NCBI GenBank assembly: GCA_947642455.1
Contig: CANRSN010000002.1
Location: 48,214 to 112,213 of the forward strand
Direction of reading: 5' to 3'
DNA: 64,000 nucleotides
From: an uncultured Clostridiaceae bacterium
GTDB taxonomy: Bacteria > Bacillota > Clostridia > TANB77 > CAG-508
Part shown: piece after piece, positions 16,934 through 45,055 of the stretch
Position numbering within the stretch: position 1 is the first letter of the stretch
How the letters are laid out: each line of letters starts with the position of its first letter
Made by a program: the position numbers and the translations under genes
The notes under the pieces: model-generated
The model's database searches: none
Told to the model about the DNA's origin: nothing
What the model saw: the letters and a program-made list of their open reading frames with translations, nothing else

Positions 16934-17152
16934 GCAAAAAGAGTACAATTTGTTATAATTCATAGTTATTAATTATCTATCTAGGCAATATAATATTTAT
17001 TTTTAGAAGTTTTGCGCAGGGAAGCTCCCACAGTGGACATGACCCAGAGCGATTGGCGAAGCCAGTAAAAAACTTCGACAAAATAAATATTATATTGCCT
17101 ATTGGCTTCTAATTTTAAACTATGAATTATAACAAATTGTGCTCTTTTGCTG
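16934..17152. repeat. nested-palindrome MITE/PATE-like element of about 215 bp, copy A
   Basis: Outer IR: aaaagagtacaatttgttataattcatag / ctatgaattataacaaattgtgctctttt. Inner IR: aggcaatataatatttatttttagaagtttt / aaaacttcgacaaaataaatattatattgcct. The core contains tggacatgac and gccagtaaaaaac. There is no credible ORF. Confidence 0.85.
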
Positions 17153-17169
17153 AATATATACAAAATAAC

Positions 17170-17198
17170 TTGACATAAAATAAGAAGAGTGATAAAAT
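17170..17198 (+). promoter_or_regulatory. sigma-A type promoter of the AAA+/radical-SAM operon (copy 2)
   Basis: TTGACA at 17170-17175, 17-nt spacer, TAAAAT at 17193-17198. Confidence 0.65.
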
Positions 17199-17279
17199 AT
17201 ACACATGTTTTTTTATAGTTGCACAATTTACTATAAGTGTAACAAGAATCTAATAATAAAGAAAAGAAGGGAGAAAAAC

Positions 17280-18866
17280 ATGAAAACACAAACTACATTA
17301 CATCTGGAGGACTATGTTTATGCCGGGTATCCAGCAATTGTGTTGAATACAGCGGAGGAGAAGCGGGCGTTAGAAGAATGCTACAAAATAGCCGAAGAAC
17401 TAAAAATGCAGTTTCTTGTATGGTCAGAAACAAATGGAATTCAAAAGTATGTTGTTGAGCATGGAGAAGAAGGAAATTTAGAGCTTGTAGCCGAAATGGT
17501 AGAAGAAACAGTAGCTCCTGATGAAGACGCATTAAGTAAAGGTTTAGGATATGGAAGTGATGTAATTTACTGTATGTTAGATTTTCATACATATATCAAA
17601 AGCCCATCAGTTTGTAGAAAGGCAAAAGATGTTTTCAAAGAAGCTAAGGATAAAGGAATAGTCTATATTTTCATAAGTAATAGGTTTGATATTCCAGTAG
17701 AATTAGAACACGAAATTATGGTAACTAATCTTGAATTGCCAAAAAAAGAGCAATTACAGGATGTTCTAGTAGAATTATGCAAAATGTACAAAAGGGATAT
17801 TCCTAAAAACATACATGAGGTTTTAGATGCAGCATTAGGTCTTACCTCATATGAAGCAGAAAATGCTTTTGCAACATCACTTTCAAAAACCAACGAATTT
17901 GATACTGACATTATAAATAATGTTAAAAGACAAATTATTTGTAAAGATGGACTGTTAGAATATACGCAATCGAAGGAAACGCTGGAAACAGTGGGCGGAA
18001 TGAAAGAATTTACAAATTATGCCCAAGAAAGGTTTTCTGCATATTCTATAGAGGCACAAGAATATGGCTTACCATATCCTAAAGGTGTACTACTTGTAGG
18101 AATTCCTGGATGTGGAAAAAGTTTAGCTGCAAAAGCACTTTCAAATATGTGGAAAAAACCGTTACTTAAATTAGATTTAGGAAAACTGTTTGGTTCATTA
18201 GTAGGCGATACTGAAGCAAAGACAAGAAAAGCCTTAGAAATAGCAGAAGCAATGTCTCCAGCTATTTTGTGGATTGACGAAATAGAAAAAGGTCTTTCAG
18301 GAGTAGGAAGTAGTGGAACAACAGACTCAGGGGTAACCTCTAGAATGTTTGGAACTATTCTTACATGGCTTCAGGAAAAGGAAGCACCAGTGTATGTAAT
18401 AGCTACTGCTAACAATATTTCTTCTTTACCACCAGAATTTCTACGAAAAGGTAGATTTGATGAAATCTTTTTTGTAGATTTACCAAATGTTGAAGAAAGA
18501 AATGAAATTTTCAAAATACAAATTAAAAAGCACAAAAGAAAGGCAGAAGATTTTGATATTGAAAAGTTAGCAAATTTAACTGATGGATATACAGGAGCAG
18601 AAATTGAGGAATGTGTTATTTCTTCAATGTTCCATGCATGGAATGATGGAAAAAGACCATATACAACTGAAGATTTAGAACTTGCAATTTCAGAAATTAA
18701 ACCCATGTCAAAAGGAATTATGAGCAGTACAGTTAGTGCTTTAAGAGAGTGGAGTGTAAATCATGGTATTAGAAATGCCAATAGTGTTATTAAAAATGTA
18801 AATGATGAAATTAATAAAGAAAAGAATGGCAGGCAGATAAGATTCAAAAAAGAGGAGGAAAAATAA
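17280..18866 (+). CDS. AAA+ ATPase, Ycf46-like (classical AAA clade)
   Basis: Walker A GIPGCGKSLAAKA, Walker B ILWIDEIEK, VIATANN, and the second region of homology PPEFLRKGRFDEIFFVDLP. The start was set at ATG 17280 after GAAGGGAG; the upstream part of the track ORF overlaps the promoter. Confidence 0.85.
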   Translation: MKTQTTLHLEDYVYAGYPAIVLNTAEEKRALEECYKIAEELKMQFLVWSETNGIQKYVVEHGEEGNLELVAEMVEETVAPDEDALSKGLGYGSDVIYCMLDFHTYIKSPSVCRKAKDVFKEAKDKGIVYIFISNRFDIPVELEHEIMVTNLELPKKEQLQDVLVELCKMYKRDIPKNIHEVLDAALGLTSYEAENAFATSLSKTNEFDTDIINNVKRQIICKDGLLEYTQSKETLETVGGMKEFTNYAQERFSAYSIEAQEYGLPYPKGVLLVGIPGCGKSLAAKALSNMWKKPLLKLDLGKLFGSLVGDTEAKTRKALEIAEAMSPAILWIDEIEKGLSGVGSSGTTDSGVTSRMFGTILTWLQEKEAPVYVIATANNISSLPPEFLRKGRFDEIFFVDLPNVEERNEIFKIQIKKHKRKAEDFDIEKLANLTDGYTGAEIEECVISSMFHAWNDGKRPYTTEDLELAISEIKPMSKGIMSSTVSALREWSVNHGIRNANSVIKNVNDEINKEKNGRQIRFKKEEEK

Positions 18867-19423
18867 TGAGTCATTTTACAAAAATAACAGCAGAAATTAG
18901 GGATTTAGACGTTTTAAAACAGGCACTTAAAAAAATGAATTTAACATTAGAGAAAAACACTAATTGTCGGTATTATTATGGGGCAGAAGTAAGAGAAAAT
19001 GTTATAAAGCTTCCAGGAGTGTACGATGTAGCTGTTGAAGCTCAAAGCGATGGAACATATGCTTTAGATGCCGATTTTTATGAAGGGCATGTTGCAAAAT
19101 ATATTGGAGCAAATGGAGAAGAGCTTTTAAGACAATATTCTATCGAAAAGCTAAAAAAAGAAGCAAAAAACCATGGGTATAAAGTGTATGACAAGGGGAA
19201 TGGTATATTAAAGATCCTTGACACAAAAAGAGCAGGTAAAATTGAAATTGAATGTTTACCAAATGGCAAGATTGAAATCAAGACTTCTGAATATAAAGGA
19301 AAGTCATGTATGAACTTTGAAATTATTGAAAAAGCTCTTGGAAGAATTGACAGTACCAAGAAAACACCAGAGTACTATAAGTCAGAAAAGGCTACAGCGC
19401 AGGTACGAATGGAAGTAAATTAG
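18866..19423 (+). CDS. DUF1257-like N-terminal domain fused to a DUF2997-like C-terminal domain
   Basis: MSHFTKITAEIRDLDVLKQALKKMN...YDVAVEAQSDGTYALDADFY recalls the Ycf35/DUF1257 signature. KIEIECLPNGKIEIKTSEYKGKSCMNFEIIEKALG recalls DUF2997. The start overlaps the AAA stop (TAATG). Confidence 0.55.
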   Translation: MSHFTKITAEIRDLDVLKQALKKMNLTLEKNTNCRYYYGAEVRENVIKLPGVYDVAVEAQSDGTYALDADFYEGHVAKYIGANGEELLRQYSIEKLKKEAKNHGYKVYDKGNGILKILDTKRAGKIEIECLPNGKIEIKTSEYKGKSCMNFEIIEKALGRIDSTKKTPEYYKSEKATAQVRMEVN

Positions 19424-31176: not shown

Positions 31177-31390
31177 GCAAAAAAAGAGTGCAATTCATAG
31201 ATATTAATTATTCATCTAGGCAATATAATATTTATTTTTAGAAGTTTTGCTTAAGGGAAACTCCAAAAGTGGACATGACCCAGAGCTACCCACTAAGCCA
31301 GTAAAAAACTTCGACAAAATAAATATTATATTGCCTATTGGCTTCTAATTTCAAACTATGAATTGTAACAATTTTACTCTTTTTTATTGA
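31177..31390. repeat. MITE/PATE-like nested palindromic element, copy B
   Basis: Same inner arms as copy A (ctaggcaatataatatttatttttagaagttttgc ... aaaaacttcgacaaaataaatattatattgcctattggcttctaattt) and the same outer arm (ctatgaattgtaaca). Confidence 0.85.
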
Positions 31391-31626
31391 AAATTATTAG
31401 AAAATATTGTTAAAAAAAGAATTGTGATATAAACTATTGAAGAGGATATAATAAGAATATTATCAACATTAACAAATTCTTAAAATATAAATAAAAAATA
31501 ATTTAAAAGGCGAATATAAAAAAGAAAAAGAGTATATTTTTTTCATATAGTATTATAATAAAAATAGGTTTATAGGTAAAACCTTAACAACAAAAACCTA
31601 AATATATTGATAAAGGAAAAGAGAAA

Positions 31627-34613: not shown

Positions 34614-34802
34614 ATGTTAAATGAAGAAATATGTGAATTAAGGGAGAAATTAAACAAAAGTATAGTAAATGGAGAAGATTATGCAATAACTTATAAACTT
34701 AGCATTGAGTTGGACGAATTAATCGCAAGATATTATAAAATAAAAGATGTAGAAAAACAGAAAGCACAAAAGAAAAATAAAAGAATGGTGATAATTATAT
34801 AA
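34614..34802 (+). CDS. Spo0E-like aspartyl-phosphate phosphatase
   Basis: 62 aa. ICELREKLNKSI....YKLSIELDELIARYY fits the Spo0E helix-hairpin with an SxELD-type motif. Confidence 0.55.
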   Translation: MLNEEICELREKLNKSIVNGEDYAITYKLSIELDELIARYYKIKDVEKQKAQKKNKRMVIII

Positions 34803-34922: not shown

Positions 34923-35139
34923 GGAAAGTATAACAATTTGTTTCTTTTCACAGATATAACATTCACTTAAGTACTATAATATTTATTTTAACAAAGTTTT
35001 GCTCAGGGAAGCTCCTAGAATGGACATGACTCTAGGCGATTGGCGAAGCCAGTAAAAAACTTTGTTAAAATAAATATTATAGTACTTGTATAATTCTGAT
35101 TTTAATCTGTGAAAAGAAACAAATTGTACTCTTTTGTTG
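34923..35139. repeat. MITE/PATE-like nested palindromic element, copy C
   Basis: Outer IR acaatttgtttcttttcacagat / atctgtgaaaagaaacaaattgt. Core gctcagggaagctcctagaatggacatgactctaggcgattggcgaagccagtaaaaaac. It lies immediately upstream of the first T4SS-cluster gene. Confidence 0.85.
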
Positions 35140-35241
35140 TTAAAAAGTTGAAAATGTTGAATAGCAAAAAAATATATGTTATAATAGAATTAAATGAGTA
35201 AAAATGTATATAACAAGTGATAAAAGAAGAGGTGTATTTAT

Positions 35242-36249
35242 ATGAAAAATAAAAGTCTAAAAAAAATGTTATCAATAATAATATTAATAACAATAGGAAT
35301 TATGTTATTATTACAAAATAAAATATATGCTATAGAAATACAAAGTGAAATAAAGGTAGCAACAATAGAAGAATTATTGAGTTGTTCAACTTGGCAAGAA
35401 GTATACGAAAAATATGGAGCAGATAGATTTGGCAAATGTGAAAATATGGAAGAATCGAATGATGAAAATGAAAACCTATTAAATTTTAATAATAGAGCAA
35501 CTGAGTTAACACATATGACAAATATATTATATTATAATATTCAAAATGGTTGGAATTTAAAAATTCAGAAAATGGATGAAAGTGAGTTAAGTGCATACAT
35601 ACAATGTATAGAAAAGTGCATGAATAATCCAGCTTGGAGTCAATTGGATAAAGATTATACAAAAGCTTCTGTACACAAAACAACGATGTTAAAAGCTACA
35701 ACAGATCTTAATATAGCAAGAACAAATATAAGTGATGCATTAGATGAACTTAAGACATATTATGATGAAAATGTCTTATCAAAAGAAGATTTAGATAAAA
35801 TGAATGCAATACAAAATCAAATAGATAAAGATGTAAGTCAATCTGTAAATACACAAATAAGTGAGTCAAATGCAGAACAAAACAAAAAAGATAAAGACTG
35901 GTCAATATCTGGAACAGTAATTATGGGAAATGATAAAAAAACAGAAGGTGGATCTGCAACAGACATTAGAGACGACTTAGACGATTACAAACCATCAGGA
36001 AACATACAAGAAAGAGAAAAATTACAAGAAATAGGAGCAGTAATTATATCTGCCTTAAGAATAGTAGGGGTAGTAGTAGCAGTAATAACATTATCAGTAT
36101 TAGGTTTTAAATATATGGCAGGTGGAACAGCAGAAAAGGCAGAATACAAAAAGACAATGATTCCATTCTTAATAGGTGCAGGAATGCTACTAATAGGAAC
36201 ACAATTAGTAGGAATTTTATACGATATAATCAGCAAAAATATAAAATAA
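35242..36249 (+). CDS. VirB2/TrbC-like pilin-type protein with a 250-aa N-terminal extension
   Basis: Signal peptide. The C-terminal two-helix hairpin IVGVVVAVITLSVLGFKYMAGGTAEKAEYKKTMIPFLIGAGMLLIG is shared with the next two ORFs. Confidence 0.6.
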   Translation: MKNKSLKKMLSIIILITIGIMLLLQNKIYAIEIQSEIKVATIEELLSCSTWQEVYEKYGADRFGKCENMEESNDENENLLNFNNRATELTHMTNILYYNIQNGWNLKIQKMDESELSAYIQCIEKCMNNPAWSQLDKDYTKASVHKTTMLKATTDLNIARTNISDALDELKTYYDENVLSKEDLDKMNAIQNQIDKDVSQSVNTQISESNAEQNKKDKDWSISGTVIMGNDKKTEGGSATDIRDDLDDYKPSGNIQEREKLQEIGAVIISALRIVGVVVAVITLSVLGFKYMAGGTAEKAEYKKTMIPFLIGAGMLLIGTQLVGILYDIISKNIK

Positions 36250-36481
36250 TGTTCTTAAAAAGTATAATTACAATTATACATATTAGAAAAAAATATATGT
36301 AGCTAGTAGTTATATATGCAAGTTATAAAAGGCTTATATACAAGTAATATTATCAAATAGAATATTTTAATTGTAAAATTTAACAAATTATGAAATTATA
36401 TAATAAAATACAAAATAAATGTTGAAAAATGAAATTATTTATAGTATAATGTAATAAGAGGACTAAAAAGGGGGCATTAAT

Positions 36482-36895
36482 ATGAAGAGTAAAATATTGA
36501 AAAGTATAGTTTTTTTAATAATTGCTTTAACAATTATAATGTTACCTAACTTAGTAAAAGCACGTTATGATGAAGAACGTTTTGAAGACTTTAGGCCACC
36601 ACAAGGTACAGTAGAAGGAGCAGATGCTTTTATAGATGCAGCAGATGGTTCACCATTAAAAGATAATAGTTTAAAAGATGCATCAGACACTCTAGCAAGT
36701 ACATTAATGATATTTGGAGTAGTTGCATCAATGGTAGTAATAACAGCTTTAGGTATAAAATTCATGACAGGCTCAGTAGAAGAAAAAGCAAAAGTAAAAG
36801 AAACACTAATTCCTTTTACAATAGGTTGTATAATAATATTTGGAGGTTATACAATTTGGAATATAGTATTACAAATAACGCAAAGTTTTAAATAG
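36482..36895 (+). CDS. VirB2/TrbC-like pilin-type protein
   Basis: Signal peptide plus IFGVVASMVVITALGIKFMTGSVEEKAKVKETLIPFTIGCIIIFGG. Confidence 0.6.
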   Translation: MKSKILKSIVFLIIALTIIMLPNLVKARYDEERFEDFRPPQGTVEGADAFIDAADGSPLKDNSLKDASDTLASTLMIFGVVASMVVITALGIKFMTGSVEEKAKVKETLIPFTIGCIIIFGGYTIWNIVLQITQSFK

Positions 36896-36956
36896 TTATT
36901 AATATTCTCATAAAATGAGAGATTAAATATAAAAATAAATAAGGGAGGAAAATAGT

Positions 36957-37328
36957 ATGAAAAAAACTATTAAAATATTATCAATAATACTAATTGCAAT
37001 AATGTTAGTAATGGCAGTTAGCCCAATAGTAAATGCATCAAATCCAGCAACAATTATAGCAAGTCAATTAAAAGATCCAGTGGCAAATGTAGAATCAGGT
37101 AGTATGGTATCTGTTGCCCAAACTATTATTGGAATAATAAATATAGTTGGTGTTGTAGTTGCAGTAGCTATACTTTTAGTATTAGGTATTAAATATATGA
37201 TGGGAAGTGCTTCAGAAAAGGCAGAATACAAAAAATCAATGATACCATATTTAGTAGGAGCATTTATCATATTTGCAGCACCTACATTAGTAAACATATT
37301 AGTAACATTATTTGGAAATATTAAATAA
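36957..37328 (+). CDS. VirB2/TrbC-like pilin-type protein
   Basis: Signal peptide (..PIVNA/SN) plus IVGVVVAVAILLVLGIKYMMGSASEKAEYKKSMIPYLVGAFIIFAA. Confidence 0.65.
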   Translation: MKKTIKILSIILIAIMLVMAVSPIVNASNPATIIASQLKDPVANVESGSMVSVAQTIIGIINIVGVVVAVAILLVLGIKYMMGSASEKAEYKKSMIPYLVGAFIIFAAPTLVNILVTLFGNIK

Positions 37329-37378: not shown

Positions 37379-37408
37379 TAAAAGTGCAGAAAAATGCACT
37401 TTTTTTTG
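37379..37408 (+). terminator. intrinsic terminator after the third pilin gene
   Basis: aaaagtgca gaaaaa tgcactttt followed by a T-run. An extended -10 (TGtTATAAT, 37437-37445) follows. Confidence 0.7.
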
Positions 37409-37483
37409 TATTTTTGTTACATTTTAGGCAAATATCTGTTATAATATATTATAGGAATATAATATTTTACGAAGGAGGAAAAT

Positions 37484-37831
37484 ATGGGAACATACTACTT
37501 GCCAAGAAATGTAAAAGGAGAAGGAAGGATATTATTTATTTTTACAGCAAAGAGTCTAATATATTCAGCAGTAGGAGGAGGAATAGGTTTTCTATTTTAC
37601 TTAATATTTTCATTATTCCAATTAGACCTAGTAGGCTATATTATAATGGGAATATTTGCATTAATAGGCTTTTGTATAGGTACATTCAAAATGCCAGAAG
37701 CACAGGGGCTTGAATTTACCAGAAAAACAGGTGGAGAAAAAATAGATGATGTAATATTAAGAGCAATAAAGTTCAAACAAAAGAACAAAAAAATATACAT
37801 ATACAAAGGAGATGAAACAGATGCCAAATAG
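37484..37831 (+). CDS. PrgI/TcpE-type (VirB3-like) small membrane protein
   Basis: YYLPRNVKGEGRILFIFTAKSLIYSAVGGGIGFLFY: N-terminal motif and two TM helices, sited just upstream of VirB4. Confidence 0.55.
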   Translation: MGTYYLPRNVKGEGRILFIFTAKSLIYSAVGGGIGFLFYLIFSLFQLDLVGYIIMGIFALIGFCIGTFKMPEAQGLEFTRKTGGEKIDDVILRAIKFKQKNKKIYIYKGDETDAK

Positions 37832-39041
37832 TGTAAATAATTTAGTATTAATATTAATTTTAATATTAGGAGTAATGATGACATTACTAATTGTAGTAGG
37901 AATGATATACTTTTTTTCAAAAACAAAAAAACAAAAAAATACAGAAGAGCAAATACAAGATACTAACAATAAAAATGTAAAAGGGAAAATAACACTTAAA
38001 GAATATTCAACAGATTCAATATTCAATTTTATGGAGTTTGACAAAATTGAAGACAACATGATAGTTCAAAAAGGTGGAGACAGGTACTTAATGGTAGTAG
38101 AATGTCAAGGAATAAACTATGATCTAATGTCAGGAGCAGAAAAAGTTTCTGTAGAAGAGGGTTTTGTACAATTCCTAAACACATTAACACATCCAGTACA
38201 AATATATACCCAGACAAGAACAATAAACTTAGAAAATAGTATACAAACCTACAAAAATAAAGTAAAAGAAATAGAAATGAACTATGAAAAACAAAAAATG
38301 AAATATGAGCAAATGCAAAACTCAGGAAGGTATACTAAAGAACAGCTAGAAAGAGCATACTTTGAATTAACAAAGCAAAAGAATTTATGTGAATATGGTA
38401 GAGACATTGTATACAGTACAGAAAGAATGAGTTTAAATAAAAACGTATTAAATAAAAAGTATTATGTAATAATTCCATATTATCCAGCAGACTTAGGACC
38501 AAACAACTTCGATAAAGAAGAAATAAAAAATCTAGCATTTTCAGAATTATATACAAGAGCACAATCAATAATAAGAACTTTAGGAGTATGTGAAGTAAAT
38601 GGAAGAGTATTATCATCATTAGAGTTAGTAGACTTACTATATGTTGCATATAACCGTGATGATGCAGAAGCATATGGAGTAGATACAGCAATAAGAGCTG
38701 GCTTTGATGAACTATATTCAACAGCCCCAGATGTTTTAGATAAGAAAATGAGACTGTTAGATGAAAAAATAGAAAGAAAAGCAGTAGAAAAAGCAAACCA
38801 AAAAATATTTGAAGTAAAATCAGAAAAACAAAAAGCTGTAGAAGAAAAAGAAGAAACTATAGATGAGCTAATAGACAACTTAGCAAAGATGATAATACAA
38901 GAAAATTCACTTCTAGTTGGAAGAGATATAGCCCAAAAAGCTGTACAAAAAATCGATGAAGACAAAGAAAATGAGGGAGGTACAAAAGATGTTCAAGAAA
39001 AAACAAAAACAAGAAAGAGAAGAACTACAAAAACAGCCTAA
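37812..39041 (+). CDS. membrane-anchored T4SS-associated protein, unknown function
   Basis: N-terminal TM, a globular region and a C-terminal charged coiled coil. Overlaps both neighbours (the start could also be ATG 37821). Confidence 0.5.
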   Translation: MKQMPNSVNNLVLILILILGVMMTLLIVVGMIYFFSKTKKQKNTEEQIQDTNNKNVKGKITLKEYSTDSIFNFMEFDKIEDNMIVQKGGDRYLMVVECQGINYDLMSGAEKVSVEEGFVQFLNTLTHPVQIYTQTRTINLENSIQTYKNKVKEIEMNYEKQKMKYEQMQNSGRYTKEQLERAYFELTKQKNLCEYGRDIVYSTERMSLNKNVLNKKYYVIIPYYPADLGPNNFDKEEIKNLAFSELYTRAQSIIRTLGVCEVNGRVLSSLELVDLLYVAYNRDDAEAYGVDTAIRAGFDELYSTAPDVLDKKMRLLDEKIERKAVEKANQKIFEVKSEKQKAVEEKEETIDELIDNLAKMIIQENSLLVGRDIAQKAVQKIDEDKENEGGTKDVQEKTKTRKRRTTKTA

Positions 39042-40968
39042 TAGTGATTACACAAACCCAAGTCAATATACTTTTTTAAGAAAAAAGACCATAAAAGAAC
39101 TAATAGCGCCATCAGGAATAGATGCAAGTAATATAGATCACTTAGAAATAATATCAAGTGTAAAAAGGTATGCAAGAAGTTTCTTTGTATCAGCATTACC
39201 TAGAATGTGTACTTTCCCAGAATTATTTAGAGATATGTACATGTTTGGAGACATAAATACATCAATATACATAAACCCAATACCAGAGTCAAGGTCGCAA
39301 AATGAATTAAATAGAACAATAAACGAAATAGAAACTGAAAGAATAGTGGCAGCAGACAAAGGAAATATAAATAGAGAAAGTGATTTAACACAAAAAAGGT
39401 TTGAGGCAGAGCAATTAAGAGATGAAATAACATCAGGTTTTAACAAATTATATGAAGCATCTATAGTGTCAACATTATTTGCATATAGTTTAGAAGACTT
39501 AGATAGGTTTACAAAATTATTAACAACAGAAATGTCAAAATCATTAGTTGGAATAAAAAGTGCATGGGCAATGCAAGAAGATGCTTTTAAATCTAACTTA
39601 CCATTAATGGAAGACAAAGTAAGGAAAACACATACATTTGACCGTAGGTCTATGGGAACAGTTTTCCCATTTACAACATCAGAAGTAGGACATCCAACAG
39701 GTATACCACTAGGTTTTAATAAGCAGACAGGAGTACCAATATTATTCGACAATTTTCACAATTCTTTAACAAACTACAATATGGTTATATTTGCAAAATC
39801 TGGTGCTGGTAAATCTGTTACAATGAAAACATTAATTTCAAGGTCAGCAGTACTTATGGGAATACAAAGTTTAGCACTAGATGCAGAAGGGGAGTATAGT
39901 ATAGTTGCAGAAAGTCTAGGAGGAATAAATGTTGTATTAAGTCCAAACTCAAAAACAGTAATAAATTTATTTGATATAGAGTCAGAAATAGTAAAAGATG
40001 AAATAACAGGAAAAGACAGAGTTGTACTAAATGTTGAAAATAAAGTTGAAGATGTAACACAAGCATTACTTACAATGGCAAGAGGTAGTACAAGAAGTAC
40101 AGAAGTAAACGAACTTACAAAACAAATAATAGCAGAGTCTGTAGCAGAAGAATATGCAGCAGCTAAAATTAATAGTGATCCAATGAGTTTGTATGAAAGA
40201 AGACCAGATGGAACAACAGGAAACATGTTAGGTAGAGAAAAAAAATTAATGCCAACAATAGGTTCTTGGTATAGAAGAATTCAAAGAAAGGCACAAGAAA
40301 ATACAAATACAGACTACCAATTTCACTATAGTTATTTGTTAAAGGTTATGAAGCAATATATTAGAGAATATGATGGACAAATGGCATATTTTGATGGACA
40401 ATCTACATTTGACTTATTAGATGGTTCATTATTTATAAACTTAGACATATCACAATTAGAAGAAAGGTTTGCAAGACCTTTAGCACAACAAATTTTACTT
40501 TCTTGGATATGGGAAAAATATGTTAAGAAAAATAGTGAAGATAGAAAAAAAGCTGCTAAAAAAAGAGTATTAGTTGATGAAGCATGGATGTTACTTCCAT
40601 ATCCAGAGGCAGTAGATTTCTTAAATACAATGGCAAGACGTGCAAGAAAAAGAAATGTATCACTTGCAATTATATCTCAAAGGTTTCAAGACTTTTATGA
40701 AAAACCAGAAGCACAAGCAGTTTTAACATCTTCAGATACAAAACTATTTTTAGCACAAGATAAATCTGAAATTAATTATCTAAAAGAAGTATTTAAGCTA
40801 AGTGAAGGTGAAGCAGGATTTTTAGTAACTTGTTTTAAAGGGGAAGGTTTATTAAAAGTAGGCTCAGATACAGCAATATTGCAAATTCAACCAACAAGTA
40901 AGGAATTTGAGTTTGTAGAAACTAACTTAAACAAATTAGTAAAAAAGCAAAGAAGTAGAGAACAATAA
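38989..40968 (+). CDS. VirB4-family T4SS ATPase (TcpF/ConE/PrgJ type)
   Basis: Walker A FAKSGAGKSVTMK, DAEGEYS, Walker B VLVDEAWMLL, AIISQRFQDF. The start was set at ATG 38989 after GAGGGAGG. Confidence 0.85.
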   Translation: MFKKKQKQEREELQKQPNSDYTNPSQYTFLRKKTIKELIAPSGIDASNIDHLEIISSVKRYARSFFVSALPRMCTFPELFRDMYMFGDINTSIYINPIPESRSQNELNRTINEIETERIVAADKGNINRESDLTQKRFEAEQLRDEITSGFNKLYEASIVSTLFAYSLEDLDRFTKLLTTEMSKSLVGIKSAWAMQEDAFKSNLPLMEDKVRKTHTFDRRSMGTVFPFTTSEVGHPTGIPLGFNKQTGVPILFDNFHNSLTNYNMVIFAKSGAGKSVTMKTLISRSAVLMGIQSLALDAEGEYSIVAESLGGINVVLSPNSKTVINLFDIESEIVKDEITGKDRVVLNVENKVEDVTQALLTMARGSTRSTEVNELTKQIIAESVAEEYAAAKINSDPMSLYERRPDGTTGNMLGREKKLMPTIGSWYRRIQRKAQENTNTDYQFHYSYLLKVMKQYIREYDGQMAYFDGQSTFDLLDGSLFINLDISQLEERFARPLAQQILLSWIWEKYVKKNSEDRKKAAKKRVLVDEAWMLLPYPEAVDFLNTMARRARKRNVSLAIISQRFQDFYEKPEAQAVLTSSDTKLFLAQDKSEINYLKEVFKLSEGEAGFLVTCFKGEGLLKVGSDTAILQIQPTSKEFEFVETNLNKLVKKQRSREQ

Positions 40969-40987
40969 AAAAAGGAGGTAATATTTG

Positions 40988-43729
40988 ATGAATTTCTTAA
41001 CCAAAAAGAAAAGTATACAAAAGATAATAATAACATGTGTATTTTTAATATTATTCAATTTTATTGTTCCAACATATAGTCAAGCTGGTATAGGAGGTAC
41101 GTTATCTGCTCCAGTTGTAGGGCTAATTTGTGTTATATGTGATGCGATTAACTGTTTGATGGCAAATTTTATGGTAGAAAGTCAAAATGTATTTACAGTA
41201 TATCCAGATAAAGATTGGGATACTGCAAGGGATTATATTAAAGCAAACCCATATAAAGCAGATGATGCACTGCCAACAATTATTATGGATCCGGGAGATT
41301 TTATTGGAGACTATGGAATCCCAATTTTAAAATATACACCAGCACAAATATTTTCTGGAAGGTTACCATCATTAGATGTAAACTTTTTTAGAGATGATAT
41401 TCCAGATACAACAGAAGAACCAAAATCGGTAGTGGCACACTTAAGAGGAGTTGTATCTAGTTGGTATGTAGCATTAAGAAACTTAGCATTAGTTGGGCTA
41501 TTATCTGTACTAATATACTTAGGAATTAGAATGATAATAACATCAAGCAATGCGGAAAAGGCAAAATATAAACAAAGTATAGTAGACTGGCTAGTTGCAA
41601 TGTGTTTAATATTCTTCTTACACTATATAATGGCATTTACATTAACAATGACAGAAGCGATAACTGATATGATATCAAATGATGATATTAAAGGTAATGA
41701 GGTATATGTAGGAATACTTAAGTCATCACCAGAAGAAAAGCCAGAAAATAACTCTAATATACTTACTAAAGAAGAAGCAGAAAAGCAAAATTATATAAGT
41801 AGTATAGATGAAGAAGAATCTTTTGCTACTACACTTATGGGAGCTGCAAGAATTCAATGTGAATATCAAGATGGCGGAAAAAAATGGGGATATTTAATTT
41901 TATATGTTGCATTAACAGTTTATACTATCATGTTTACATTTACATATTTAAAAAGGTTAATAAATATGATTTTCTTAACAATAATAGCACCACTTGTAGC
42001 ACTTACATACCCATTAGACAAAGCGGGAGACTCAAAAGCACAAGCATTTAGTTTTTGGTTAAAAGAATATATATATAATGCACTAATACAGCCAGTACAT
42101 TTATTATTATACACAGTACTTGTAACTTCAGCATTATCACTAGCAGCAACAAATATGTTGTACGCAATAGTAGCTTTAGCATTTATATTACCAGCAGAAA
42201 AAATATTAAAGCAAATGTTTAACTTTAGAAATACAACAGGTCAAAGCCTTGGAGGATTTGCAGGTGGTATGATAACAAAAGGAATATTAGATACTGTTGC
42301 AAGAGGTGGAAAAAGAGTTGCTGCAAATGCTACTAATAAAATTAGAACAGCAAATAATTTAGGAATAAAAGATCCAGATGCACCAAAAGGAGCATCAGCA
42401 TTAGCAGGAGCAGCTTCATTAGTAGCAGGAGCTCCAGCAGTAGCACAAGCAGTGCAAGGAATGGCATGGAATGCAAATAATAATGGAGGACAAGCAAATT
42501 CAGGTATGGGAATACTAGGAGCATTGTCAGGAAGTGCACAAGGCGCAGCTGGAGGAGATAGTGGAACAGGAAGTCAAACTGGAGCAGGAAGCTCAAGCGG
42601 AGCTGGAAGTCCAAGTGGAATAGATGGTAATTCTAATGGAGTAACAATTCCAAGCAATATAGGTGGAGATATCGGTTTAGGTTCTCAAGAAGGAAATCCA
42701 GTAGCAACTAATGGAATTGGTCAATTAGGAGATCAATCAGGTTATGATAATGCAACTAGAATAGGAATACAACAATTTACTGATGAAAATGGAAATTATT
42801 TAGGTACAAGAGTATCTGTACAAAGACCAGAAAGCCCATACCTAAGGGCAAATGTTTTACCAGATGGTACTATTGAGGCACATACAAATGTAGGTAATGC
42901 AGGTTTAGGCAGTGCAGGTGCAGGTAGAATTAGTGGAAATACAGGAGGACAAAGAAGAGGCTTCATAGGCGGAATTAAGAATGTTGCAGGAAAAGCATAT
43001 AGCAGTGTTGGAGGAGCAGGAGGAATTGCTAAGATGGCAGCAAAAGGTGCGGCAAGAGGTTTAGTAAAGGCTGGTGGAATTGCAGCTGGAACAGCAATAG
43101 GTATGGCAGCAGGAATAGTATCTGATGATCTAGATAATATAGGTAAATTTGCAATAGGAGGAGCTCTTGCTGGTAATTCAATAGGAAATAATGCAGCAAA
43201 TAGAGTAGAAGGAGTAATATCAGGAGCACAAAGTGTAATGGACACATTTGACCAAGGTCGTTATACTCCAGAAGATTATGCTAGAAAGCAACTTGCTAAA
43301 CAACAAAAAGAATTTAAGAGAGATTACAAAACTAAGCAATATTTCAAAGATAATTTCAAAGACAAAACAGATGCACAAATTAGTGATATTATGGATAGAG
43401 CAGCTACATTTAATAGTAATGGAATTAAAGACCTAGACAGAATAAAAGATGCTATTAAATTAGAAGATGGATTAAGAGATAGAGCAAGACAAATTCAAGG
43501 TGGCGGAGAGCCAACACAAGAACAATTAACAATGGCACATAATGAAGCATTAACATTAGCAAAAATAAGAACAGACTTAGGCGAGTCAGGATTTAACGAT
43601 TACAAGAAAGTTAGATCTCGTAAATCAGCTTTAACAGAACAATTAGTAAATAATGGAATGACTAGAGAAGCTGCTCAGCAAAGAACAGATGATAGCTTTA
43701 ACTTTATGGAAAGTACATTGAATACATAG
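40988..43729 (+). CDS. VirB6/TcpH-like polytopic T4SS membrane protein with a Gly/Ala/Ser-rich C-terminal half
   Basis: Signal/TM plus about 6 TM helices (residues about 160-400), then a low-complexity G/A/S/N region and a charged C-terminal domain. It occupies the position after VirB4. Confidence 0.55.
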   Translation: MNFLTKKKSIQKIIITCVFLILFNFIVPTYSQAGIGGTLSAPVVGLICVICDAINCLMANFMVESQNVFTVYPDKDWDTARDYIKANPYKADDALPTIIMDPGDFIGDYGIPILKYTPAQIFSGRLPSLDVNFFRDDIPDTTEEPKSVVAHLRGVVSSWYVALRNLALVGLLSVLIYLGIRMIITSSNAEKAKYKQSIVDWLVAMCLIFFLHYIMAFTLTMTEAITDMISNDDIKGNEVYVGILKSSPEEKPENNSNILTKEEAEKQNYISSIDEEESFATTLMGAARIQCEYQDGGKKWGYLILYVALTVYTIMFTFTYLKRLINMIFLTIIAPLVALTYPLDKAGDSKAQAFSFWLKEYIYNALIQPVHLLLYTVLVTSALSLAATNMLYAIVALAFILPAEKILKQMFNFRNTTGQSLGGFAGGMITKGILDTVARGGKRVAANATNKIRTANNLGIKDPDAPKGASALAGAASLVAGAPAVAQAVQGMAWNANNNGGQANSGMGILGALSGSAQGAAGGDSGTGSQTGAGSSSGAGSPSGIDGNSNGVTIPSNIGGDIGLGSQEGNPVATNGIGQLGDQSGYDNATRIGIQQFTDENGNYLGTRVSVQRPESPYLRANVLPDGTIEAHTNVGNAGLGSAGAGRISGNTGGQRRGFIGGIKNVAGKAYSSVGGAGGIAKMAAKGAARGLVKAGGIAAGTAIGMAAGIVSDDLDNIGKFAIGGALAGNSIGNNAANRVEGVISGAQSVMDTFDQGRYTPEDYARKQLAKQQKEFKRDYKTKQYFKDNFKDKTDAQISDIMDRAATFNSNGIKDLDRIKDAIKLEDGLRDRARQIQGGGEPTQEQLTMAHNEALTLAKIRTDLGESGFNDYKKVRSRKSALTEQLVNNGMTREAAQQRTDDSFNFMESTLNT

Positions 43730-43991: not shown

Positions 43992-44918
43992 ATGTTTAAT
44001 AAGTATATTAGGTATTTTAATCAAAATAAATCAAAAGTAATTATGATAGTAATTGCAGTTATACTTGCATTTATTCTTATACAAGCTTTAAATCAATTTA
44101 TAGAAGATGAAAATAAAAGCAGGATAAATGAACTAACAAATACAGTTATTATAGATAAAGAAATTAAAGATTCTGTTATAAAAGAAGGTTCAACATCTAC
44201 AGAAGTTGCTAAAAAAAGTAAAAGCATGATAGATGAATTTGTAAAATATTGCAATACGAAAAATACAAAAAAAGCATATGAACTATTATCACAAGATTGT
44301 AAAGATATTCTTTTTCCAACAGAGGAAGATTTTATAAATACATATTACAATTTAGTATTTAATAGTTATAAAGAATATGAAATTGAAAACTGGGTTTCTA
44401 ATGGAAACTACATAACTTACAAAATTAGATATACAAATGATGCTTTAGCACAAGGAGGGTATAAATCAGAGTATACATTAGAAGATTATTATACAATAGT
44501 AAAGCAAAAAGATGATTATAAATTAAACATAAATAAATTTGTAAGTAGAGAGCAAATAAATAAAAGTCAAACCAAAGATAATTTTAGTATAAATGTAGTA
44601 GCAAGGGAAAATTTTATAGATTATCAAATATATGAAGTCTATTTCAATAATAAAAATGCTTATCCAGTAAAAACATATGATGAAAGTGAAAGCTCTACTT
44701 GGAATGTAACAGACGAAAGAGGTTTAGAGTATTTAGCATTTACAAATGAAATACCAGATAATAACTTAAGAGTTGAAAGTGGTGTAGAGAAGAAAATAAA
44801 AATCAAATATGCGAAAATGTACAATTTGAATAGAAAAATAAGTGAAATTAAGTTTAATAATATGTATTTTGAAAATGGAGTAACAAAAGGATTATTTAGT
44901 TTTGATATAAGTATTTAA
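43992..44918 (+). CDS. N-terminally anchored protein, possible VirB8/TcpC-type component
   Basis: Single N-terminal TM and a globular extracytoplasmic domain. Assigned by position only. Confidence 0.3.
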   Translation: MFNKYIRYFNQNKSKVIMIVIAVILAFILIQALNQFIEDENKSRINELTNTVIIDKEIKDSVIKEGSTSTEVAKKSKSMIDEFVKYCNTKNTKKAYELLSQDCKDILFPTEEDFINTYYNLVFNSYKEYEIENWVSNGNYITYKIRYTNDALAQGGYKSEYTLEDYYTIVKQKDDYKLNINKFVSREQINKSQTKDNFSINVVARENFIDYQIYEVYFNNKNAYPVKTYDESESSTWNVTDERGLEYLAFTNEIPDNNLRVESGVEKKIKIKYAKMYNLNRKISEIKFNNMYFENGVTKGLFSFDISI

Positions 44919-45055
44919 GATTATTATAAAACTTTGGTGTAGATATTTTAACTAAGTAACAAAAATTAATCTAAATATGTAAATAATTTAAGTTTAAAGA
45001 TTATAGATATATATTTTAATTTAAAAGAAAAACGAACTAAAAAGAGGTGAGGAAA

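Follow-up and report, generated by a model that had tools for sequence, protein, structure and literature searches.

Tandem VirB2/TrbC-like pilin genes beside a split VirB4 in a chromosomal locus of uncultured gut Clostridia

The pilin array and its transcription signals

Three consecutive forward-strand genes in the window (the whole 64,000-nucleotide stretch of DNA that was analysed) encode proteins whose C-terminal regions of about 70 residues align with one another. A reading made earlier from the letters alone, here called the sequence-only reading, took them for three tandem VirB2/TrbC-like pilin paralogues, and its coordinates for them were right. The features of the array, with the signals assigned to it, are as follows.

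35157-35185, + strand: putative sigma-A-like promoter 5' of ORF1, TTGAAT-17-TATAAT with a TG extension (10 of 12 consensus matches)
35242-36249, + strand: ORF1, 335 aa, pilin paralogue with an N-terminal head
35242-35331, + strand: predicted signal peptide of ORF1 (aa 1-30)
35332-35886, + strand: all-helical head of ORF1 (aa ~31-215)
35887-36003, + strand: low-confidence linker of ORF1 (aa ~216-254), with the conserved motif DWSISGTVIMG...YKPSG
36004-36249, + strand: pilin hairpin of ORF1 (aa 255-335)
36422-36450, + strand: putative sigma-A-like promoter 5' of ORF2, TTGAAA-17-TATAAT (11 of 12 consensus matches)
36482-36895, + strand: ORF2, 137 aa, VirB2/TrbC-family pilin paralogue in the middle position
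36957-37328, + strand: ORF3, 123 aa, VirB2/TrbC-family pilin, adjoining prgI and the most conserved of the three
37380-37411, + strand: predicted intrinsic terminator closing the pilin unit, a nine-pair stem (37380-37403) followed by a T run
37416-37445, + strand: promoter-like site for the machinery genes, GTTACA-18-TATAAT with TG, an extended -10 (consensus scan)

A good Shine-Dalgarno sequence can be read directly in front of each of the three genes. The C-terminal alignment contains 22 invariant columns, including the pattern G..K.M.G...EKA..K...IP...G, and in pairwise BLASTP ORF3 is matched by ORF1 at E=4e-13 and by ORF2 at E=3e-12. In each protein a Lys-rich N-terminus leads into a hydrophobic segment and then an AXA-like site (KIYA/IE after residue 30 in ORF1, LVKA/RY after residue 27 in ORF2 and IVNA/SN after residue 27 in ORF3, the slash marking the site), and hydropathy places two more hydrophobic segments around the charged loop. 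AlphaFold2 folds this region into helical hairpins, at residues 47-82 and 85-120 in ORF3 (model mean pLDDT 79.8) and at 255-293 and 296-334 in ORF1 (model mean pLDDT 66). The architecture proposed from sequence alone, a cleavable signal peptide and two hydrophobic helices around a charged loop, is thus predicted for all three. The ORF1 and ORF3 cores are only 71% identical in DNA, which rules out recent gene conversion among the paralogues and makes them old duplicates rather than cassettes.

Profile comparison assigns the shared module to the TrbC/VirB2 and T4SS_pilin families, and not to holin or immunity families. ORF3 exceeds the Pfam cut-offs of both models, with 39.0 bits for T4SS_pilin (cut-off 26.6) and 35.6 bits for TrbC/VirB2 (cut-off 27.9); ORF2 scores 28.7 bits against TrbC, above the same 27.9 cut-off. 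ORF1 stays below cut-off for both models, at 22 and 20 bits. A profile built from ORF3 orthologues matches it at E=5e-28, and we count it in the pilin superfamily (PF04956, PF18895) despite the low Pfam scores because it is a clear paralogue. All three proteins also match, weakly, the NCBIfam "pilin-like" Mycoplasma ICE family Mbov_0395. The only PDB sequence match for the pilins is weak (E=0.38) and is to TrwL, the VirB2 pilin of R388. Foldseek searches of the PDB with the ORF3 and ORF1 models returned no significant match, helical hairpins and generic bundles being uninformative in such searches. No name for these exact proteins was found in public sources; one homologue, P0027, is named VirB2 pilin by JGI. 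Relatives of ORF3 fall into about 2000 clusters at 90% identity and 6314 clusters at 50% identity.

The head that distinguishes ORF1 is real, and shorter than the 250 residues first credited to it: about 225 residues lie between signal peptide and pilin core, about 185 of them helical and about 40 forming a low-confidence, disordered linker. The linker motif DWSISGTVIMG...YKPSG is invariant across head-bearing homologues with otherwise unrelated heads, so that linker and core stay conserved while the heads are non-homologous between lineages. A VirB5-like role for the ORF1 head is possible by analogy; searches for VirB5/TraC likeness gave no Pfam match, no PDB sequence match and no significant Foldseek match for the model.

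The sequence-only reading had further proposed that the pilin set has its own terminator and that a separate extended -10 promoter serves the machinery genes. Both signals were recovered. A terminator stands 3' of the last pilin gene in 75 of 77 related loci, compared with 3 of 160 pilin-pilin junctions, 4 of 135 other junctions and 2% of shuffled controls, and the terminators of related loci often share the same AAAAGTGCA..TGCACTTTT stem. The extended -10 motif TGTTATAAT lies at 37438-37446, 5' of prgI, and is present in the putative ORF1 promoter as well. By its sequence the sigma-A-like site 5' of ORF1 would function as a promoter; the block that contains it (35152-35204) recurs 5' of ORF2 with 72% identity. 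A large palindrome 5' of ORF1 was considered as a conserved regulator and rejected, being confined to this species and having no Rfam match.

Machinery genes and related loci

PrgI starts 156 nt past ORF3 and is followed by a split VirB4, an arrangement that puts the three pilin genes in the place of virB2 and is repeated in about 77 related loci. The genes from PrgI to the end of the module are listed here.

37484-37831, + strand: PrgI/VirB3-like membrane protein (Pfam PrgI 31.1 bits, cut-off 27); its 3' end overlaps the next gene by 20 nt
37812-39041, + strand: B4N, a separate, membrane-anchored VirB4 N-terminal half, TrsD-like/TraC-like (VirB4_plasma 77-270; PF26593)
38956-40968, + strand: B4C, the VirB4 ATPase half (Pfam P-loop_TraG, AAA_10, DUF87), with Walker A at aa 280
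40985-43729, + strand: extended VirB6-like protein with a long Gly/Ser/Ala-rich region (weak TrbL_4; Mycoplasma-ICE and pLS20 VirB6-type models)
41477-41662, + strand: pilin-like hairpin embedded in the VirB6-like protein (aa 165-226; BLASTP against ORF3, E=1e-5)
43992-44918, + strand: p308, 308 aa, bitopic, with a hydrophobic N-terminal stretch; position conserved in related loci
45047-47785, + strand: 912-aa cell-wall hydrolase, candidate for the VirB1 role (Pfam Phage_lysozyme2 101.8 bits)
47823-50484, + strand: p429 (429 aa, hydrophobic N-terminal stretch) and p430 (430 aa, acidic, no long hydrophobic stretch), the end of the module

Two results identify B4N: a precomputed Pfam match to PF26593 (TraC-like), and an alignment to positions 77-270 of NCBIfam VirB4_plasma, which lie towards the N-terminus of that VirB4 model. 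It has one TM segment at aa 11-29. B4C aligns to positions 271-891 of that model, and the split is conserved in related loci. The best models for B4C fall short of their cut-offs: the CD1110-type VirB4 gives 204 bits where 325 are required, and the Mycoplasma ICE VirB4 gives 180 bits where 590 are required. All NCBIfam scores at this locus lie below the equivalog cut-offs. PHROGs returned "terminase"-type ATPase matches to the VirB4 halves and nothing else. The pilin profile matches the VirB6-like protein and about 60 of its orthologues. The 912-aa hydrolase also has a weak, sub-cut-off match to Peptidase_C39_2. No family or PDB sequence match was found for p308, for which a VirB8-like role is a guess from topology. 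Profile searches, PHROGs included, gave no family match for p429 or p430, and a PDB sequence search gave nothing meaningful; p430 has 113 homologue clusters. VirB5, VirB7, VirB9, VirB10, VirB11 and VirD4 were not detected at the locus.

A search with two exact peptide motifs finds relatives in 540 species-level genomes. The 80 relatives listed of these 540 are all gut MAGs, nearly all labelled Clostridia, and these organisms are known from MAGs alone; presumably the related MAGs belong to a GTDB order such as TANB77. In the 80 loci fetched of the 540, the order pilins, PrgI, B4N, B4C, VirB6-like protein, p308 is kept, most with three to six pilins. The array is far beyond chance and recurs in hundreds of genomes. 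We found no paper in the literature describing VirB2-like arrays in Clostridia.

The surroundings are also conserved. Most listed relatives carry the module between M16 peptidase/Spo0E-like genes and dac: the left flank of M16 peptidase/Spo0E-like genes is kept in 44 of 80 loci, and the right flank (hydrolase, a p429-like protein of about 420-428 aa, a p430 homologue, dac) in two other species. These borders, with the same housekeeping flanks across many species, are not those of a mobile element. No integrase or repeat was found at the module borders, and the G+C content of the module equals that of its surroundings. An integrase island does lie 2 kb downstream; dac and two tRNA genes stand between it and the module, and it is missing from the relatives examined. 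The scanned ORFs of at least 100 aa in the 64-kb window include no relaxase and no coupling protein of the VirD4/TcpA type, and neither was found among the called genes of related contigs (about 10-kb flanks). The one other Walker-A protein in the window, of 563 aa and with no family match, is in the separate tRNA-linked island. The host is a spore-forming Firmicute, with SpoVB, SafA-like and Spo0E-like proteins encoded near the module.

Conservation within the array is graded. Between species the cores are 63% identical at the position next to prgI, that of ORF3, and 46% (ORF2 position) and 41% identical at the others, and the mature N-terminus varies from species to species. In one strain, ORF3 holds 24 of the 34 SNPs found across 4.1 kb, and these cluster at its mature N-terminus and at the tip of its C-terminus. 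Of 80 loci, 16 encode fused pilin chains with two modules; longer chains, of three to five modules, are encoded elsewhere. Of the ideas offered earlier for several diversified subunits, that of major and minor subunits fits the conservation gradient, with ORF3 as candidate major subunit, and that of variation fits the strain-level SNP hotspot in the ORF3 termini, which are exposed in solved conjugative pili.

What the pilins may build

We think it probable, on balance, that ORF1, ORF2 and ORF3 are VirB2/TrbC-family pilins of a chromosomal T4S apparatus that is vertically inherited, apparently non-conjugative and common to a large clade of uncultured gut Clostridia. A working model would run as follows. 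The pre-pilins would enter the membrane through Sec and be cut by signal peptidase I, and the mature pilins would span the membrane as hairpins, their two termini facing outward and the basic loop facing the cell interior. Anchored at the membrane by PrgI/VirB3, the two-polypeptide VirB4 ATPase would extract them and stack them on a VirB6 platform that itself has a pilin-like hairpin, and the polymer would cross the wall through a gap cut by the 912-aa hydrolase. ORF3 would make up the shaft, whether of a filament or of a tube that spans the wall, with ORF2 and ORF1 as low-abundance variant subunits and the helical head of ORF1 displayed outside or at the tip as a contact or adhesion element. 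With no coupling protein or relaxase in the window or in the neighbourhoods examined, the output is likely to be contact or attachment, possibly uptake, and not plasmid export.

The observations that bear on assembly are the fused multi-module chains, the variable termini and the separate transcription unit. The fused chains suggest that the subunits are neighbours in an assembly; the variable N-terminus, the clustering of SNPs and the non-homologous heads suggest that the termini are exposed. From these we infer that the three proteins may assemble into a filament. To our knowledge, no filament has ever been observed for a Firmicute T4SS, nor has a pilus been reported for one. This is among the points in favour of a rather unlikely alternative, in which the proteins are true VirB2 homologues that make no extracellular pilus and instead stay at the membrane as part of the channel, or as a short stalk rising from VirB6, with the paralogues and fused forms making up a fixed hetero-oligomeric ring. 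The VirB6-like protein bears a pilin-like hairpin, and the pilins could therefore be its channel partners. Chains of up to five fused modules would suit a five-fold ring, the sole five-fold link being the pentameric VirB6 described for R388 (PMC12857230). VirB2 can be needed for transfer without pilus formation, and several Gram-negative systems require it yet make no pilus (PMC12857230). Variation between strains and species is, however, concentrated in the termini, which is unexpected for a fixed channel part, as are large unrelated heads. A fixed channel would also need no separate unit with its own terminator, an arrangement that suggests pilin is made in large excess of the machinery.

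It is very unlikely that the locus belongs to an ordinary conjugative element, an ICE or integrated plasmid whose relaxase and coupling protein lie beyond the region examined. The VirB4 is indeed nearest to conjugation-type models (CD1110, at 204 bits, and Mycoplasma ICE VirB4), large Clostridium plasmids carry the closest plasmid relatives (42% identity), their genes in the same order, and there is the integrase island 2 kb away. Against this, the housekeeping flanks (M16 peptidases/Spo0E-like to the left, dac to the right) are the same in many species, the borders have neither integrase nor repeat, the G+C content is that of the surroundings, and the island is set apart by dac and two tRNA genes and missing from the relatives examined; no relaxase or coupling-protein family was found in the 64 kb, and the related plasmids are typed non-mobilizable. 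Apparently non-mobile, vertically inherited and with neither relaxase nor coupling protein in the regions examined, the module is therefore very probably not an ordinary conjugation system.

It is barely credible, and largely refuted, that the pilin match is a compositional artefact in small membrane proteins of an unrelated kind (holins, bacteriocin immunity proteins or secreted peptides). In favour of this, the profile scores, at 20-39 bits, are modest, such scores are inflated by hydrophobic helices, and a lysozyme-type hydrolase is nearby. Against it, the conserved loop motif G(S/G)xxEKAEYKK extends beyond the hydrophobic runs, two independent pilin models score above curated cut-offs, the single PDB match is a VirB2 pilin, the place beside virB3/virB4 is invariant in about 80 loci, and PHROGs has no match for the pilins, on which ground a holin or phage identity was dropped.

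Comparison with known systems

Reviews describe Gram-positive T4SSs as lacking VirB2 pilins and reliant on adhesins, with Patescibacteria the sole recent exception (PMC12857230, PMC4027160, PMC9905601). A pilin array in an MPF-FATA-like system, chromosomally fixed in hundreds of gut Clostridia species, weakens those statements. The MPF-FATA systems (pCF10 Prg, pIP501, pGO1 and CTn2; Mycoplasma ICE) share with the locus PrgI, a VirB4 of the CD1110/Mycoplasma-ICE type, a VirB6-like protein and a large membrane-anchored hydrolase. They differ in being mobile and in having a relaxase, a coupling protein and surface adhesins, and they are said to have no VirB2 homologues (PMC4027160).

The VirB4 half, used as query, led to related clusters on large plasmids of C. 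botulinum and C. beijerinckii (for example p12/29, NZ_KT897275). These have the same order of genes: a 127-aa pilin-like protein, a small PrgI-like protein, a VirB4 N-half, an ATPase half (42% identical), a VirB6-like protein and a C39-type hydrolase. Their pilin-like gene is single and matches T4SS_pilin weakly (E=0.0027), and their genes are annotated as hypothetical or DUF87; tblastn found no plasmid homologues of ORF3. Occurring in cultivable Clostridium, the clusters offer an experimental route to the question of a Gram-positive T4SS pilus.

VirB2 of the Ti plasmid, TrwL of R388 and TrbC of RP4 have, as is predicted here, a cleavable signal peptide, two helices and a short basic loop, with virB3-virB4 directly 3'. 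Their systems work in diderm hosts, where an outer-membrane core complex is present together with VirB5, VirD4 and a relaxase, and usually have a single pilin gene, unlike the Clostridia locus with its three or more paralogues, one bearing an N-terminal extension of about 225 aa. For the question of how VirB2 subunits pack, the pilins with heads and the fused pilins amount to natural experiments. With Bartonella Trw the locus shares multiple sequence-variable pilin copies and a T4SS without coupling protein; variant adhesive pili rather than substrate transfer have been proposed for Trw (PMC12857230). Trw is nevertheless a Gram-negative system derived from an R388-like plasmid system, has amplified VirB5 as well and targets host erythrocytes, and its homology to the Clostridia locus is at family level.

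The archaeal Ced/Ted systems (CedA1/TedC, PMC9905601) have VirB2-like pilins, VirB4- and VirB6-like partners, no outer membrane and no relaxase, and in them, as here, the pilin shows homology to an N-terminal portion of the VirB6-like protein. TedC is cleaved by signal peptidase I (PMC9905601). Their host is archaeal and DNA import has been demonstrated for them; recognisable sequence likeness to the Clostridia locus is limited to weak CedB/CedD ATPase matches.

The closest published analogue is the T4SS of Patescibacteria (for example Southlakia epibionticum, TM7x; PMC12102498, PMC12857230). Compared with the description in PMC12102498, the Clostridia locus has the Patescibacteria-type gene set. 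Both have tandem arrays of divergent VirB2-like genes (2-11 in Patescibacteria, 3-6 here), with paralogue identities averaging 25% there and 31-46% here; both have PrgI/VirB3, a separate VirB4 N-terminal homologue (TrsD there, B4N here), VirB4 and VirB6; both are chromosomal, usually without relaxase, and match PF18895 and PF04956. They differ in host, a spore-forming Firmicute here and an ultrasmall epibiont there, and in the large VirB1-type hydrolase of the Clostridia locus, most pilin-bearing Patescibacteria genomes lacking VirB1. Head-bearing and multi-module pilins are found here and are not known to have been reported from Patescibacteria.

We propose, tentatively, that spore-forming Firmicutes build VirB2-type filaments: that a gut Clostridia clade with relatives in at least 540 species-level genomes may have domesticated a T4SS without relaxase or coupling protein, its array with head-bearing and multi-module "poly-pilins" forming a filament at the surface, or a conduit, that serves contact between cells or uptake, as the Firmicute counterpart of the Patescibacteria T4SS, on which epibiotic growth depends, and perhaps a relative of that system's source. 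The locus points to a function apparently other than conjugation, one that purifying selection maintains in abundant bacteria of the gut. Patescibacteria pilins have been considered possibly co-opted from other T4SSs, as pilins were thought absent from MPF-FATA (PMC12102498); the Clostridia locus makes their inheritance from monoderms plausible.

Three tandem pilin paralogues

Three tandem genes, each behind a good ribosome-binding site, are followed on the same strand by a series of partly overlapping genes.

Features of the pilin array and the apparatus downstream of it
35242-36249, +, ORF1, 335 aa
36482-36895, +, ORF2, 137 aa
36957-37328, +, ORF3, 123 aa
downstream of the pilins, +, PrgI/VirB3-like protein (gene prgI)
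37812-39041, +, N-terminal half of VirB4, 409 aa, N-terminal TM segment; aligns to VirB4 model positions 77-270
38956-40968, +, ATPase half of VirB4, 670 aa, Walker A motif; VirB4 model positions 271-891
downstream of the split VirB4, +, VirB6-like protein, 914 aa
downstream of the VirB6-like gene, +, p308, 308 aa, hydrophobic N-terminal stretch
downstream of p308, +, lysozyme-type hydrolase, 912 aa
downstream of the VirB6-like gene, +, p429 and p430, conserved proteins of 429 and 430 aa; no family match in family searches

The sequence-only reading had described the three proteins as paralogues sharing their C-terminal 70 residues or so, and this is confirmed: alignment of the region contains 22 invariant columns, and BLASTP detects the paralogy at E=4e-13 and 3e-12. 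Also borne out is the proposed signal peptide followed by two hydrophobic helices around a charged loop. In each protein a Lys-rich N-region precedes a hydrophobic core and then an AXA-type site, after which hydropathy indicates two hydrophobic segments with a charged loop between them. In the AlphaFold2 model of ORF3 (mean pLDDT 79.8) the signal helix is followed by one short helix and then by a long hairpin of helices (47-82 / 85-120); the model of ORF1 (pLDDT 66) is all-helical over about 42-213, of low confidence over 209-254, and ends in a hairpin (255-334) as in ORF3. The N-terminal extension ascribed to ORF1 is present, at a smaller size than the 250 residues first given: a folded head of about 185 residues plus a linker of about 40.

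Profile comparison upholds the proposed TrbC/VirB2 assignment. ORF3 passes the Pfam cut-offs of both T4SS_pilin (39.0 bits; cut-off 26.6) and TrbC/VirB2 (35.6 bits; cut-off 27.9), ORF2 exceeds that of TrbC with 28.7 bits, and ORF1, slightly under both cut-offs, is placed by paralogy and by its match (E=5e-28) to a profile built from ORF3 orthologues. All three weakly match the NCBIfam model "Mbov_0395 pilin-like conjugal transfer protein", from Mycoplasma ICEs. The single PDB sequence matched by the ORF3-orthologue profile, weakly (E=0.38) and over the helix-loop-helix, is TrwL, the VirB2 pilin of R388. ORF1-3 very probably belong to the VirB2/TrbC pilin family, which is already recognised in databases: Pfam models exist, and JGI calls one homologue VirB2.

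Transcription units and downstream machinery

The set had been credited with its own terminator and the machinery genes with a separate promoter, and both features were found again. A terminator is present after ORF3 (37380-37403), and in the window the TGTTATAAT motif recurs 5' of prgI as a promoter-like site; upstream of ORF1 and ORF2 lie promoter-like blocks that share 72% identity. Judged by their motifs, the promoters of the pilin genes resemble sigma-A sites. A terminator-like hairpin (stem of at least 9 pairs plus a T run) separates the last pilin gene from prgI in 75/77 loci; a hairpin of this kind appears at 3/160 pilin-pilin junctions, 4/135 machinery-internal junctions and in 15/770 shuffled controls. 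Because the hairpin is so regular before prgI and so rare elsewhere, the pilin array is best regarded as a unit separate from the machinery genes, as expected for a subunit needed in large excess.

The interval that separates the Spo0E-like gene from the ORF1 promoter contains a near-perfect 195-nt palindrome (34933-35127), whose 23-nt and 32-nt arms show 100% complementarity; its RNA fold is at -81.9 kcal/mol (z = -11.5). It has no Rfam match and no second copy within the window, and is confined to this species, relatives having an ordinary terminator at that place; a small inserted element is one possible origin.

VirB4 is encoded by two overlapping ORFs, and the split is kept in related loci and is therefore no sequencing error; it resembles the TrsD+VirB4 pair of Patescibacteria and pGO1. 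Strain L003 has 50 SNPs over 6.2 kb, every one of them in the VirB4 ATPase gene, a pattern suggestive of a recombination tract. The VirB6-like protein holds a Gly/Ser/Ala-rich low-complexity region of about 250 aa and, at aa 165-226 (41477-41662), an embedded pilin-like hairpin with the loop AEKAKYK. BLASTP relates this hairpin to ORF3 (E=1e-5), and the pilin profile also matches about 60 VirB6-like orthologues at the same place. The arrangement echoes the pilin-VirB6 relationship reported for archaeal CedA/CedA1 and Agrobacterium VirB6/VirB2 (PMC9905601).

Distribution, variation and chromosomal setting

The exact ORF1-3 proteins occur in the same context in MAGs GCA_948585425.1 and GCA_949742625.1. 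Homologues of ORF3 form about 2000 90%-identity clusters, each with both pilin Pfam domains, and a HMMER scan of 1.84 billion representatives returned 6314 clusters at E<=0.001. Searching with two exact peptide motifs found relatives in 540 species-level genomes. Every one of the 80 listed is a gut MAG, the hosts including rabbit, human, goat and deer, and nearly all are labelled as Clostridia, Clostridium sp. or Clostridiaceae (two bear other family labels); among them are Clostridium sp. CAG:567 and a closed chromosome of 1.55 Mb. The organisms carrying the locus are uncultured.

Gene order is essentially invariant in these 80 loci, running from the pilins through PrgI, the N-half and the ATPase half of VirB4 and VirB6 to p308 (and hydrolase), and 44 of them also share the left flank, (yqeY), M16, M16, Spo0E-like. 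The right end (hydrolase, a protein of about 420-428 aa, a p430 homologue, and the D-Ala-D-Ala carboxypeptidase gene dac) is kept as in the window in two further species, with unrelated chromosomal genes beyond dac. Since gene order and flanks are kept across species, we infer a vertically inherited chromosomal T4SS module and not an ICE.

Complete arrays (67) hold three pilins in 42 loci, four in 20, five or six in four, and one in one. Between species the prgI-adjacent pilin is most conserved (63% identity over the last 72 residues), followed by the middle (46%) and first (41%) positions; ORF3 orthologues keep the hairpin and loop almost invariant and vary in the mature N-terminus. Strain L004 of this species differs from the window at 34 positions over 4.1 kb, 24 of them inside ORF3, clustered in the mature N-terminus (37050-37119) and the C-terminal tip (37305-37328). 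In conjugative pili, VirB2-type pilins have both ends on the filament outside and the loop towards the lumen.

Head-bearing pilins, 273-584 aa long, occur in a minority of related loci. For the ORF1 head there is a single clear homologue, P0002 at 55% identity, besides a faint one. The other heads are unrelated, despite which both the hairpin and the linker motif DWSISGTVIMG...YKPSG are conserved. Pilin ORFs with two tandem modules ("poly-pilins") occur in 16/80 loci (L019, L027, L038, L041-L043, L051, L055, L061-L063, L066, L078, L083, L086, L087), and the metagenomic proteins P0132, P0131 and P0130 carry three, four and five modules, respectively, behind one signal peptide. Because each module starts and ends outside, fusions of this kind make topological sense, and they argue that pilin modules may be neighbours within an assembly.

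The window, of about 27% G+C throughout, looks like the chromosome of a spore-forming Firmicute, encoding nrdD/nrdG, yqeY, two M16 peptidases, a Spo0E-like protein, SpoVB, a SafA-like LysM protein and a P-type Mg-ATPase. The genes flanking the module, Spo0E-like upstream (34614-34802) and dacF-like downstream, may be sporulation-associated. The dac gene (Peptidase_S11, 50536-51790) is split into ORFs of 181 and 244 aa that overlap; in relatives L092 and L093 it is intact at 414-427 aa. The split reflects a frameshift pseudogene or else an error of assembly. Together with tRNA-Gly and tRNA-Cys, dac separates the module from an integrase/cI-like/methylase/RadC island starting at 52.3 kb. Within 51875-63200 the two tRNA genes are followed by this island, whose products are a tyrosine integrase (-), a cI/S24-type repressor (-), a Walker-A protein of 563 aa with no family match, a DNA methylase, RadC, an integrase fragment and an HTH protein. 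None of the relatives examined has the island, which is a mobile element beside the tRNA genes and distinct from the T4SS. An intergenic repeat of about 245 nt (88% identity; no Rfam family at gathering score) lies before an AAA-ATPase gene (16957-17200) and between the PMT-like and first M16 peptidase genes (about 31201-31446). At 17205-19423, a CDC48/FtsH-like AAA ATPase, weakly similar to the anti-phage ATPase IteA, precedes a DUF1257+DUF2997 protein; the two may form a small pair acting in defence or quality control.

Possible assembly and relation to known systems

Pilins would be exported by Sec, cleaved by signal peptidase and stored in the membrane as hairpins. The two-part VirB4, anchored by PrgI, would extract them for polymerisation on VirB6, through a wall opening cut by the hydrolase. 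The shaft would consist of ORF3, with ORF2 and ORF1 as minor variants and the head of ORF1 displayed outside or at the tip. The odds lean slightly towards ORF1-3 making a filament or tube; any particular cellular function is much less certain. Among the ORFs scanned in 64 kb there is no VirD4-type coupling protein, relaxase, VirB5, VirB7, VirB9, VirB10 or VirB11, and with both coupling protein and relaxase missing there, an apparatus for contact, attachment or uptake is more likely than one for DNA export. The main rival is that these pilins act in a non-pilus channel role. An ordinary conjugative element is poorly supported. A non-pilin identity of ORF1-3 is poorly supported as well, and the holin and immunity-protein alternatives named by the sequence-only reading are not supported, since a PHROGs search gave no match.

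Our literature search found no paper on such pilin arrays in Clostridia. A related cluster, in which one gene is weakly pilin-like and all genes are annotated hypothetical or DUF87, is found on large C. botulinum and C. beijerinckii plasmids. On C. botulinum plasmid p12/29 (NZ_KT897275, 9247-17723), the T4SS-like cluster reads 127-aa pilin-like gene, PrgI-like gene, split VirB4 (42% identical), VirB6-like gene and C39 hydrolase; the plasmids are typed non-mobilizable, and the cluster offers a cultivable system for experiments. Functional analogues are Bartonella Trw, which has variant pilin copies and lacks a coupling protein, and the archaeal Ced/Ted systems. In reviews and surveys, monoderm T4SSs have been stated to be without VirB2 homologues (PMC4027160, PMC9905601), the sole exception given being the chromosomal T4SS of Patescibacteria, mostly relaxase-less, with 2-11 divergent VirB2-like pilins plus PrgI, TrsD, VirB4 and VirB6 (PMC12102498, PMC12857230). 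The present Firmicute locus has the same parts list, to which it adds the large hydrolase, head-bearing pilins and poly-pilins.
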